Assembly (NCBI GenBank): GCA_964016885.1 | Contig: CAXHJY010000390.1 | Location: forward strand, 1 to 46,472 | Length of the DNA: 46,472 nt | Direction: 5' to 3' | Origin: Eledone cirrhosa | Lineage: Eukaryota | In this document: piece by piece, positions 6,840 to 44,490 of the stretch | Numbering within the stretch: the first letter of the stretch is position 1 | How the letters are laid out: each line of letters opens with the position of its first letter | Notes under the pieces: generated by a model | Told to the model about the DNA's origin: nothing | Database searches by the model: none | What the model saw: the letters and a program-made list of their open reading frames with translations, nothing else | Translations under genes and position numbers: made by a program

Positions 6840-6894
6840 ACTGCTATATATATTTCGGTGACAGCCATCTTTGGCTGTGACCTCTTCAGGCAGT
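6840..6894 (-). ncRNA. Type I hammerhead ribozyme (family B)
   Basis: Minus strand: ACUGC-CUGAAGA-GGUCACAGCCA aaga UGGCUGUCACC-GAAA-UAUAUA-UA-GCAGU. Stem I 5 bp, stem II 10 bp plus a C.C mismatch, palindromic stem III, AUA triplet. Confidence 0.9.
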
Positions 6895-7634
6895 CCGAAT
6901 TAGTGTGGTATAGACAAGTACACATGTTGTTGAGGTGTTTAACTTTGTCAATACTCTGATATGCCCAGTTCCTGGTTGGGTTGTTATTTTACTGAGGAAC
7001 TGGAACCATATGCATTTAAACAAACGAATTTCAGCGTCAAAGGGCCTCTTCTCCTCTCATTGGTCAGTTGTGAGAACATTCCTCAGTCAAAAGTCTATAG
7101 AAATTCGTTCTGAGACAAGCCAATCTGTAGTGATTGTCCTTGTTATTGTTAGGTACATCTGACCTCTATTCTTATGTTGGTAGTGGTGTTGTTGTTGGAG
7201 TCAGCTCAAAGAAATGATAAAGTGGTAGCAGGAATAAGATGGTAAAATAATCAAATAAAATGTGTGTGTTATACCCATCTCAATGTTATAAATATTTGTA
7301 AGGTCACTCTTCGCATTGGTCAGATTTGAGAGCATTCCTCAGTCCAAATCTATAGAAATTATTTCTGGGCTGAGGTTCCCTGTAGTGTTTGTGTTTGCTA
7401 TTGTTAAGTACATCTTACCTCTACCCTTATTTTGTATATATATATATATATATATATATATATATATATATATATATATATATATATGTATATACGTGCA
7501 TATATATATATATATACGTGTATATATATATATATATATATATATATATATGTATATACATGTATGTATATATATATATATGTATATACATATATATATA
7601 TATGTGTATTTATATATTATATATATATATACTA

Positions 7635-8243
7635 TGTCAGGTCACCAGTTGGTGCTATTGGTAACATGTATCCCAGTACAACCTGTCTCATGGTCGGGTC
7701 GTTGGCGACTAAACTGGCAACCCCACCAAGGTTTCTTGGTGAGGAGGGTGGCTTTGGACATCCTGCAGGACTAAAAACAAAACCTGTCAAAAGGCAAAGG
7801 GGCTCTTAAGAGTCAATAGCCATCCAAAATCACTGGGAGAGATGACTCCTTAGCCTTTGTCAAGGCAGAATTCTAGGAGAAGGAAAACTCTGATATAACA
7901 CCTGCAACCCTGATGGTATCCAATGATGTTGAATTGATCTTCTTTTTGGTAAATACCATCTTGGTTAAGAGAGTGGGACTGACTTTGTGCAGTGCCTTTG
8001 CTCACTAGAAAAGCTTCACAGCACAGGCATTGATTTATATCTGGAGATCTCTCTGCACTTGTCGTCACATGGTACCGAGGGCCCAGCACTATGTGTCAAT
8101 AATTGTCACAAGTGTAGTGTTTGTACCAGAGTTTTCAAGTCGCTGGCTGGACTAAAAAGTAACACTCGTTCAGCGCATTGGTAGGGGTTCTCCTACATGG
8201 ATATAAAGTAGTGGCCGTACTCGAAAACGAGTTGGCAGCCACC
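7635..8243 (+). mobile_element. Short RTE-type element: putative 5' region plus decayed 3' ORF end with a C2H2-like finger
   Basis: 7842-8243 is the reverse complement of 30680-31082. Encodes WRSLC... and [24 protein letters not shown] (C-terminal zinc finger typical of RTE/BovB ORFs). Ends GGCAGCCACC + (TA)n. Confidence 0.7.
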
Positions 8244-9037
8244 ATATATATATATATATATATATATATATATATATATATATATATATATATGTGTGTA
8301 TATATATATATATGTATATATATCTGTATATATATATATATATATATATATATATATGTATATATATCTGTATATATATATATATATATGTATATATATC
8401 TGTATATATATATATATATATGTATATATATCTGTATATATATATATATATATGTATATATATCTGTATATATATATATATATATGTATATATATCTGTA
8501 TATATATATATATATGTATATTTATCTGTATATATATATATATGTATATATATCTGTATATATATGTATATATATATATATGTATATATATCTGTATATA
8601 TATGTATATATATCTGTATATATATATATATATATATATATATATATATATATATATCTGTATATGTATATATATCTGTATATGTATATATATCTGTATA
8701 TGTATATATATCTGTATATGTATATATATATATATATATATGTATATATATATATATATATATGTATATATATATATATATATGTATATGTATATGTATA
8801 TGTATATATATATATATATATGTATATATATATGTATATATATCTGTATATATATATATATATGTATATATATATCTGTATATATATATATATCTGTATA
8901 TATATATATATATATATGTATATATATATGTATATATATATCTGTATATATATATATATCTGTATATATATGTATATATATATATATATATATATATATA
9001 TATATATATGTATATATATATGTGTATATATGTATAC
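8244..9037. repeat. (TA)n microsatellite with TCTG/TG interruptions
   Basis: Direct inspection. Confidence 0.97.
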
Positions 9038-9087
9038 CCATTTTAAAAGGGTACGTCAAAGCTTATTTGTAAAACTGTTATATATTC

Positions 9088-9152
9088 TATTTTGTCTGAT
9101 GAAGGCATACCATAATTTAATTTGGTATCCCTGAAATATTTATAATTAAATA
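9088..9152 (+). ncRNA. Type I hammerhead ribozyme (family A; stems I/III partly eroded)
   Basis: UAUUUUGU-CUGAUGA-AGGCAUACCA..UGGUAUCCCU-GAAA-UAUUUA-UA-AUUAAAUA. Confidence 0.75.
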
Positions 9153-9278
9153 AATATGGTTTTATAAATATAGTTTCCATTTATTAATGTCGTATATATA
9201 TATATATATATATATATATACATATATGTATGTATATACAATATTAAATAAATGAAACTATATTTATAAAACCATATT

Positions 9279-9344
9279 TATTTCACTATATATATTTCAG
9301 GGATATCATATTAACAATATGCTATGCCTTCCTCAGACAAAATA
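9279..9344 (-). ncRNA. Type I hammerhead ribozyme (family A)
   Basis: Minus: UAUUUUGU-CUGAGGA-AGGCAUAGCAUAUU..AAUAUGAUAUCCCU-GAAA-UAUAUA-UA-GUGAAAUA. Confidence 0.8.
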
Positions 9345-9457
9345 CAATATAAACAGTTTTATAGATAAATAGATTCGACATACCGTAACAACATCGACTT
9401 GTATTTGAAAAAAGGTTGATTTGGTAGAAATTTGCGAAATTTCTTGGTAGAAATTTG

Positions 9458-43282: not shown

Positions 43283-43326
43283 ATGGCGAAGGGTAACCTG
43301 GAAAGCAGGGCAAGCAGTCCAATCGT

Positions 43327-43550
43327 CATGGCGGAAATTGGGGCTGTGAAGCCTTAACCCCCCCAAATCACTCTCTAAATGACCTTCCTAGTCAAAGCCG
43401 CATGTAGTGTTATCTAGTGTGTGTGTGTTATCTTTTTATGTGTGTACGATTCAGTAAGCAGTCAAAGTTTTGGTTGCCCCAAAGCTGTTTTTTGTGTGTG
43501 TTATATGAAGGTTCCATATATCTTTACATATAAAAATGGGCTCCGCCATG
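43327..43550. mobile_element. Possible small DNA-transposon MITE
   Basis: Terminal inverted CATGGCGGA / TCCGCCATG with internal GGGGCTG..AGCC..CCCCCCCAAA; no clear TSD. Confidence 0.4.
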
Positions 43551-43649
43551 CTTAAAACATGGCCAAGCAACACAGTACATGTATGTCAATACGGCGACCC
43601 TATGATATAATGTGGATTTACAAGACCATATTATACCATAAAATACTTT

Positions 43650-44040
43650 GGACTTTCATCTCGATACTGGATACCAACCGGAATACACCTGAACTTCCAC
43701 CAGGAAATCTTTCGTATTTTTGTAATTTTCTTTGCTTCTTGCATTTAAATATTCCACGACTCTCAACCACTTATTTCTCTACTACATTCTTCCCAGCCGT
43801 CTATTTTCCACTCCCACCCTAGTACCTTCAATATGGACCTGTTATTTTTATCTAAAGACATTTTTTCCAATTCCAACCCGCCCCGTCTCCTCAATCTATT
43901 TTATTTCTCATTCTTTCTTCTGATGAAGGACTAGCGTCTGAAACGTTAAGACCCTTTTTCTGTTATATCAAGCGTTAACCTAATATATACCTTCCATATA
44001 CTCTACCGATTGTGTTGTTATTTCTGTTTACCTTCTACAT
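43650..44040 (+). mobile_element. Penelope-like element 3' end (decayed GIY-YIG C-terminus, pyrimidine-rich spacer, hammerhead)
   Basis: 43654-43697 reads FHLDT/WIPTGIHLNF across a frameshift, similar to the PLE end motif IF.LGTL.P.G+N.DF; followed by a minimal hammerhead. Confidence 0.6.
43916..43951 (+). ncRNA. Minimal type I hammerhead (PLE type)
   Basis: UCUU-CUGAUGA-A-GGAC uagc GUCU-GAAAC-GUU-AAGA; palindromic AACGUU stem III. Confidence 0.8.
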
Positions 44041-44063
44041 ACACACACAGACCAGTGTCTCTA

Positions 44064-44275
44064 ACAGACCAGTGTCTGTCCTTAGGGCATCAACATACAT
44101 TAACCTTTGTCTTCCTCTTCTAGTGTGTCCATGTAGGGGCTCTCAAAGGAGCACTGAGTGCAATGTCAACTCTGGATGTCGTTGAGCATGTCCAGCTAAC
44201 CTCAGTCTCCTCTCTGTCACTTTTGAACTGACTTTTGGGATGCTCCCATACAGCTCTGAGTTTTTCATCCTCAGT
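44064..44275 (-). mobile_element. RTE/RTE-X LINE ORF C-terminal fragment (pseudogenised)
   Basis: Minus: MKNSELYGSIPKVSSKVTERRLRLAGHAQRHPELTLHSVLL*EPLHGHTRRGRQRLMYVDALRTDTGL, with the RRLR.AGH..R and G.R.RGR motifs. Confidence 0.85.
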
Positions 44276-44423
44276 GTATACTGATTAATGGCAGCGATAA
44301 TGAGGGACAGAGACCGCTGGAGAGAACTCGTCCATGGATCTCGGGAATTTTACCCGCCTTAGAATAGAATATATATATATTAATTCAATATATTAACAAA
44401 ATAGATATTCTTGTGATCAAGTA

Positions 44424-44490
44424 TATTTTATTATTCATATTTCAGAGGTACTGAGTTAAGTTCAACAGTACGTCCTCATCAGATAAAATA
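44424..44490 (-). ncRNA. Type I hammerhead ribozyme (family A-related, different stem II)
   Basis: Minus: UAUUUUAU-CUGAUGA-GGACGUACUG..CAGUACCUCU-GAAA-UAUGAA-UA-AUAAAAUA; perfect 8-bp stem I. Confidence 0.82.

Follow-up and report, generated by a model that had tools for sequence, protein, structure and literature searches.

Every hammerhead ribozyme motif that we found in contig CAXHJY010000390.1 of the Eledone cirrhosa assembly GCA_964016885.1 (46,472 nucleotides [nt], analyzed at full length and referred to here as the window) carries an unpaired C·C at the fourth position of helix II, and we conclude that this mismatch is a real, selected structural signature, apparently undescribed, of one retrotransposon sub-clade. 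We interpret the conserved C·C, rarely C·A, as a site under selection for recognition, with the element's own reverse transcriptase (RT)-endonuclease as its most likely reader, in motifs that are likely to cleave as dimers, a reading that we hold with about even confidence.

Nine hammerheads are present in the window, each with a helix II made up of three positions, the C·C, and then five to seven further pairs (Table 1). A scan for the type I hammerhead core (CUGANGA, GAAA, and UH) together with a paired helix II returned seven motifs, and two more, the 14575/14739 copy pair, in which the first helix II pair is A·C. When position 4 was left free, it was C·C in 9/9 of these core-plus-helix motifs, and the same pattern gave 0 motifs in 100 dinucleotide shuffles of the window. 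Seven of the nine belong to one family (family A), and two copies have a decayed helix III. The three helix II sequences quoted in the initial annotation, each with C·C after three positions, were all found in the window; the AUA triplet that it described is AUC in some families. Rfam gave no match in the window at the gathering score; at E values up to 10, it gave 0 matches for positions 6815 to 6935, which hold the family B copy, and no hammerhead among the 150 of 557 window matches listed, these being microRNA-type matches on simple repeats and hairpins.

To the same effect, a scan of the 3.0-Gb genome with a pattern that put no constraint on helix II gave 76,289 matches, against 129 for the reversed pattern used as the control, and 70,495 of the 76,289 (control 1) had C·C. 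A further 7,121 C·C motifs with other helix III loops (control 0) bring the total of C·C-type motifs in the genome to ~78,000. As an internal control, the Hydra-type hammerheads of this genome with another kind of helix III gave 18,267 matches (control 1,868), only 36 of which (control 14) had C..C. The 5' C of the mismatch was replaced in 3,380 of the 76,289 copies (4.4%), many of those among the matches listed being C-to-T changes at CpG; the 3' C was replaced in ~2,414 of 72,909 (3.3%, an approximate figure obtained by subtraction, as matches with variable gaps need not add exactly); and the catalytic C3 was replaced in 1,983 of the 72,478 copies keeping C·C (2.7%). Thus, loss of either mismatch C is about as rare as loss of the catalytic C3, and 3.3% and 4.4% are near passive decay. 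A C-G pair at position 4 gave 342 matches; the 100 listed C-G matches and the 100 listed matches with a replaced 5' C look like scattered mutants of C·C families, and no amplified family with a standard pair at position 4 was seen among them.

The one tolerated alternative is C·A. A genome-wide search for it gave 1,429 matches (control 6), and the 100 matches listed comprised 22 from a first C·A family, 26 from a second amplified family that is a relative of a C·C family, and otherwise scattered mutants. The first family gave 240 matches, and among the 100 of these that were listed 80 were C·A and 3 were C·C. C10.4 is therefore constant, and the base opposite is C or, in two amplified families, A, so that the retention of a single C·C claimed in the initial annotation holds for the great bulk of copies but is not absolute. 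When the family B copy was compared with three contig sets, neither run from organism A showed another letter at ≥5% at either mismatch C, and position 11.1 and the loop varied; one 95-nt contig from organism B spans both Cs with no difference, which does not suffice to assert its occurrence in a second species. The architecture of three pairs, C·C, and helix was found in 0/141 loci from pattern scans (at least 117 metagenome-contig loci and 24 viral-contig loci).

Judged by their motifs and homologues, the C·C hammerheads form the 3' ends of elements in a single sub-clade of the Hydra clade of Penelope-like retrotransposons, for which the published marks are a C-terminally placed GIY-YIG endonuclease with a CxCX5C linker, DKT, (TA)n targets, and a 3' hammerhead (PMC8557442). 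At loci bearing an open reading frame (ORF), the motifs sit at the 3' end of RT-endonuclease elements. Copies share an end point just after the hammerhead; many have a truncated partner in inverted orientation, a tail is optional, and the flanks are (TA)n, and AATAAA lies within 45 bases downstream in 155 of 206 distinct copies. The window copies match ORF-bearing loci at 84 to 98%, and no Hydra ORF remnant was found within the window. The endonuclease alignment shows the C-terminal GIY-YIG, the CxCX5C linker, CxxC-E and N-CxH, and no CCHH; DKT is present in the L091 fragment and in outside homologues, and RWK in 6/8 of the outside homologues examined, the copies here being 5' truncated with the N terminus not recovered. 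The RT is matched by 44 outside proteins at 33 to 48% identity; two octopods and a coral are the sources of those that are named, and the proteins examined have these same motifs. Pfam searches with six ORF pieces returned no RT or GIY-YIG match, and no solved structure was matched by sequence.

Two further features of these elements lie beside the ribozyme. The optional tails (window 32050 to 32150 and loci L022, L025, and L027) have TACTCC and a TYGAGTGCT motif in common between families A and B, with flanks otherwise unlike, and the shared motif is a candidate initiation or promoter signal. A splice-donor-like GGTATGTC, which lies 35 to 50 bases upstream of the core (window 31915 to 31925 and equivalents), is kept in the A and C families and absent from the B type; its sequence allows pairing with helix II's 5' arm, and an intron over the ribozyme is conceivable.

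The three hammerhead types of the initial annotation are not independent, since in the endonuclease tree they fall in one retrotransposon sub-clade. Endonuclease identity is 39 to 40% between A and B, 39 to 41% between A and C, and 39 to 44% between B and C. In a 47-row tree (midpoint root), 11 C·C-linked proteins and one protein not linked to a hammerhead form a branch with support of 95/93, which excludes four proteins of non-C·C families and 27 outside Hydra-like proteins. This tree leaves out the rare families, both C·A families, and the large AUGAUCAU family; the rare families are missing because the upstream stretches of 19 of their copies yielded no ORF for those families. As the linked proteins form a single clade with endonucleases only ~40% identical, the A, B, and C types have one origin, but an old one, and did not converge. 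This depth bears directly on the simplest account of the mismatch, namely, neutral inheritance from a recent common ancestor. That all linked families form one clade, and that most genomic copies are truncated and decaying passively, would suit it; the divergence of the endonucleases (39 to 44% identical), the variation among clusters, and the covariation set out below, with nine of ten helix II positions changed on both sides, largely refute it, and we regard it as very improbable.

We aligned 20 representatives, hand-picked for diversity and scored with no account of relatedness. Position 4 was unpaired in 20/20 (19 C·C and 1 C·A), and changes had occurred on both sides at 9/10 helix II positions and 5/5 helix I positions. 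The covariation score was 0.634 versus 0.264 in shuffles (0/500 as high) and ≤0.142 when slid, and covariation in three helices with an open helix I supports the type I fold. Apart from the core and the helix III ends, just three alignment columns reached ≥90% conservation, those of the two Cs and A15.3. Helix I and the flanks yielded no conserved base or loop in either the alignment or the clusters: helix I is 4 to 8 base pairs (bp) long and covaries freely, and helix II has ~10 positions and loops that vary across clusters.

The 206 distinct copies fell into 30 clusters, a sample that the search patterns had enriched both for and against C·C, and C·C was the majority state in 13/13 clusters of three or more copies; the non-C·C states comprised four single copies, chosen for being non-C·C, and one two-copy cluster. 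The neighboring positions turned over across the same 30 clusters. Pair 1 took five states (U·U in 9, G-C in 7, G·U in 7, A-U in 5, and A·A in 2), pair 2 took four pairing states (G-C in 10, G·U in 9, A-U in 7, C-G in 3, and other in 1), and pair 3 took three (U-A in 19, A-U in 6, G-C in 3, and other in 2), and position 5 was a purine on the 5' side and a pyrimidine on the 3' side in every case. Two amplified families, at loci L093 and L404, have A·A at 10.1-11.1, normally the best-conserved pair. The proposal that the mismatch is selected is thus upheld by compensatory turnover of its neighbors, by a position that is never a standard pair in the alignment, and by the lack of an amplified paired family among the matches listed. 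Taken together, these comparisons indicate that the mismatch survived deep divergence while adjacent pairs covaried.

Helix III, from A15.1 to U16.1, is an 8-nt palindrome that occurs in five forms, AUAUAUAU, AUAUGUAU (a wobble form), AUACGUAU, AUGAUCAU, and AUGCGCAU, and in the 20 representatives changes on both sides preserve its self-complementarity. Since the palindrome is kept through two-sided changes, it is as expected if two copies pair together, and a self-complementary helix III is a known dimer mode of hammerheads (PMC4209133, PMC3088659). The palindrome and the published precedent make it likely that the motifs cleave only as dimers. In silico, two family B copies co-fold into the double-hammerhead form, and family A prefers a misfold in the same test. 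The initial annotation also took helix III to be a piece of (UA)n matching the genomic niche. This link was rejected: the 7,121 C·C motifs with other loops have mostly perfect non-UA palindromes, and other Hydra families beside (TA)n have a different helix III, so that the (UA)n match between helix III and the target site is incidental.

When 15 of 17 selected representatives were folded, closing the mismatch gained 2.4 to 6.7 kcal/mol, and the probability of pair 10.3 with C·C was ≤0.14 in 8/15, so that the junction end of helix II must receive some support. One explanation is that the mismatch acts as a mere brake: with helix II weakened, the ribozyme would be inactive in the absence of a tandem partner or a chaperone, possibly via pairing of the 5' arm upstream. 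The energy gained by closure fits a brake, and in 6/15 representatives (no shuffle control) upstream sequence is a stronger pairing partner for the 5' arm than its own 3' arm. However, these upstream pairings lie at differing places across families, and an upstream-pairing switch was rejected as a general feature at 6/15. Moreover, U·C, the commonest mutation, is within 0.3 kcal/mol of C·C in 14/15 representatives, yet no amplified U·C family was seen among the 100 listed matches with a replaced 5' C (C·U was given no search of its own). Since U·C equals C·C in energy and is not amplified there, the constraint would fall on base identity, and the fact that C·C and C·A are selected and U·C is not argues for a defined shape or contact rather than mere weakening. 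We consider a brake improbable.

A cause outside the sense RNA would place the constraint in DNA-level promoter or endonuclease sites beside the core, or in a G·G in antisense RNA or a complementary DNA (cDNA) hairpin. The spacing between each C and a conserved core box is indeed fixed, and inverted copies are common; against this, the bases flanking each C vary as pairs, and two separate one-base DNA constraints are a less simple explanation. A constraint from a reading frame through the motif was rejected as well, because helix II length differs by non-multiples of three and N7 varies. A non-sense-RNA cause therefore strikes us as distinctly improbable.

If the mismatch makes a specific contact, the partner could be RNA. 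The initial annotation proposed a tertiary contact with stem I or a protein-binding site; for a base-specific contact, helix I offers no conserved partner base. A looser version would have the mismatch distort helix II so that the helix I backbone or a metal ion docks, replacing the loop-loop contact without any protein. Positions 10.4-11.4 are where the canonical type I 4-bp helix II ends and loop 2 begins (PMC4209133), irregularities midway along a long helix II are seen repeatedly (the D. virilis motif has a bulge, and chrysovirus hammerheads that cleave fast have a bulged A; PMC13725137), and the restriction to C or A opposite C10.4 suits a geometric rule. The variable, freely covarying helix I with no conserved base or loop speaks against it, and the chrysovirus authors themselves see no clear loop-loop contact (PMC13725137). 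We judge an RNA tertiary element to be somewhat unlikely.

We rank the element's protein first as the partner and a sequence-independent RNA contact second, because no RNA partner base is conserved, the junction is weak, and a Penelope-like precedent for protein dependence exists: the Anolis hammerhead cleaves only with its protein (PMC11167929). In this preferred reading, the element's protein would read the helix II mismatch and so help to fold an otherwise weak ribozyme. Both C·C and C·A place C10.4 opposite an amino base that could be protonated to give a wobble-like pair, and the two would be interchangeable for this reason. A bolder form, possible if doubtful, is that these motifs make up a hammerhead subclass of their own, with a protonatable C·C/C·A wobble at 10.4-11.4 that replaces the loop-loop contact and docks the retrotransposon protein, with cleavage conditional on both dimerization and the protein.

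Several points weigh against the protein as reader of a selected site. The linked types have a single origin, and in a 24-row tree the C·C-linked proteins group at only 82/85. In addition to the two-way enrichment of the cluster sample, the rare families were recovered with C·C-conditioned patterns, and C·U, as noted, had no dedicated search. In Anolis, insertion in vitro is still supported after truncation of the 5' end to +20, a change that takes away the greater part of stem II (which runs from +1, with the cut site at +26), and ribozyme mutants insert normally (PMC11167929), so that helix II is not the essential protein site in that element, which belongs to a different clade. Finally, a sequence-independent RNA contact would equally leave no conserved partner base. 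The least certain part of the favored reading is accordingly that the partner is the element's protein rather than an RNA backbone contact.

How Penelope-like hammerheads are activated is an open question, as they are without the usual tertiary contact and show poor cleavage on their own (PMC4209133, PMC11167929). Here, a noncanonical pair lying outside the catalytic core is retained with roughly the stringency of C3 in families whose proteins are 40% identical, and a naturally allowed substitution (C·A), together with hundreds of decayed variants, provides a two-base handle with which to test protein assistance versus RNA tertiary structure. One of the larger sets of genomic hammerheads would probably escape searches that require G10.1-C11.1 or complete pairing of helix II. 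If the protein-docking subclass proved true, the mismatch would be a first RNA determinant to be defined for a hammerhead assisted by protein, and one amplified to ~78,000 copies.

Other hammerheads and repeats were met alongside. Other Hydra-type families in the genome (L110 to L139 and L368 to L370) have a 4-bp helix III with a 1-nt loop and ~16,000 matches above control; one of them (L115 and L139) has a one-base helix II bulge and one or two unpaired positions at the helix II base. A third Hydra lineage (L379:2130-2250 and L104:3700-3900) has hammerhead-like ends in which helix II is very long, and U3 stands in for C3 in one of them. Among metagenome contigs L140 to L256, 73/117 loci hold a single repeat family that is not of the C·C type; it has a hammerhead core, a helix II that seems to be branched or irregular, and ACAUGU as a palindromic helix III. 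The window also holds tandem arrays at 1-2187, 3164-4832, 35568-35998, and 37384-38376, with units of 97, 136, 111, and 140 bases and no intact hammerhead core in the units checked, and long near-perfect inverted repeats at 5630-5855 and 23207-23362, which have subthreshold microRNA-family matches and are possibly inverted truncated element pairs.

Table 1. Hammerheads and the associated element copy in the window
Feature	Positions	Strand	C3	C10.4	C11.4	Remarks
Family B type I hammerhead	6840..6894	-	6889	6879	6860	H17 6845; helix I 5 bp
Family B element copy, 5' truncated (hammerhead and 3' untranslated part), flanked by (TA)n tracts	6790..7434	-				89% over 645 window bases to L096, with upstream Hydra-type endonuclease
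Family A hammerhead	9088..9152	+	9096	9106	9129	One decayed helix III base; 97% to ORF-bearing L090
Family A hammerhead	9279..9344	-	9336	9326	9302	95% to ORF-bearing L092
Family A hammerhead, inverted partner of 14739	14518..14583	-	14575	14565	14541	First helix II pair A·C
Family A hammerhead, then start of element's tail	14731..14796	+	14739	14749	14773	First helix II pair A·C
Family A hammerhead, inverted 5'-truncated partner of 31962	31710..31773	-	31765	31755	31733	
Family A hammerhead, then AATAAA and tail extension to ~32150	31954..32019	+	31962	31972	31996	98% to L092
Family A-related hammerhead (AAG...CUU)	32368..32432	-	32424	32414	32391	
Family C hammerhead (GGA...UCU)	44424..44490	-	44482	44472	44447	One decayed helix III base; 84% to L098, with upstream Hydra-type endonuclease

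Hammerheads at Penelope-like ends, a long helix II, a palindromic helix III, and Hydra elements in an octopus have already been published; the sources are compared here in the parts of each that were covered. The motifs resemble the metazoan Penelope-like hammerheads with palindromic helix III of Cervera and De la Pena (2014, PMC4209133) in being type I, in lying at element ends, and in having a long helix II, a short helix I with no defined loop, and a small palindromic helix III taken as a dimer signal, and the host elements are alike in having many families per genome and mostly truncated copies. Unlike that consensus, the motifs here have no extra nucleotide after A9 (before 10.1) and no conserved G10.1-C11.1, and the C·C at 10.4-11.4 occurs, by eye, in 0/56 motifs of Fig. 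S3 of that paper, where single C·A and U·U fourth pairs exist.

The Hydra-clade elements of Craig et al. (2021, PMC8557442) share with ours the GIY-YIG C terminus, the CxCX5C linker, CxxC and CxH around E and N, DKT, (TA)n targets, a 3' hammerhead, and a loose first helix II pair. In contrast, the 26 Hydra rows of File S2 have a paired helix II with no C·C and a helix III of 3 to 4 bp with a 1- to 3-nt loop; the octopus element of that paper is of this helix III type, which is also present in this genome, and the helix III strings of the C·C motifs are absent from a hammerhead context in the part of the supplement covered. No description of C·C at this place in helix II was found in the literature searched, which covers the relevant papers and alignments in part. 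The suggestion of an unrecognized hammerhead subclass therefore stands insofar as the variant lacks a description there, but it belongs to one sub-lineage of a known clade and has C·A exceptions.

The Anolis Poseidon element (Frangieh et al., 2024, PMC11167929) likewise has a hammerhead in a Penelope-like terminal repeat and an optional downstream tail, but it belongs to another clade, the portion of its text covered describes no such mismatch, and its ORF starts in stem II, whereas no frame runs through the motif here. Canonical metazoan type I hammerheads of non-LTR (LTR, long terminal repeat) retrozymes, of the Schistosoma type (PMC7229834; bioRxiv 10.64898/2026.07.22.740005), have the same core, a short palindromic helix III, and dimer cleavage, which is predicted for the motifs here. 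They differ in their 4-bp helix II and conserved contact bases between loops 1 and 2, neither of which is seen in the C·C motifs, and they reside in tandem satellites, whereas the C·C motifs are the dispersed ends of autonomous elements.

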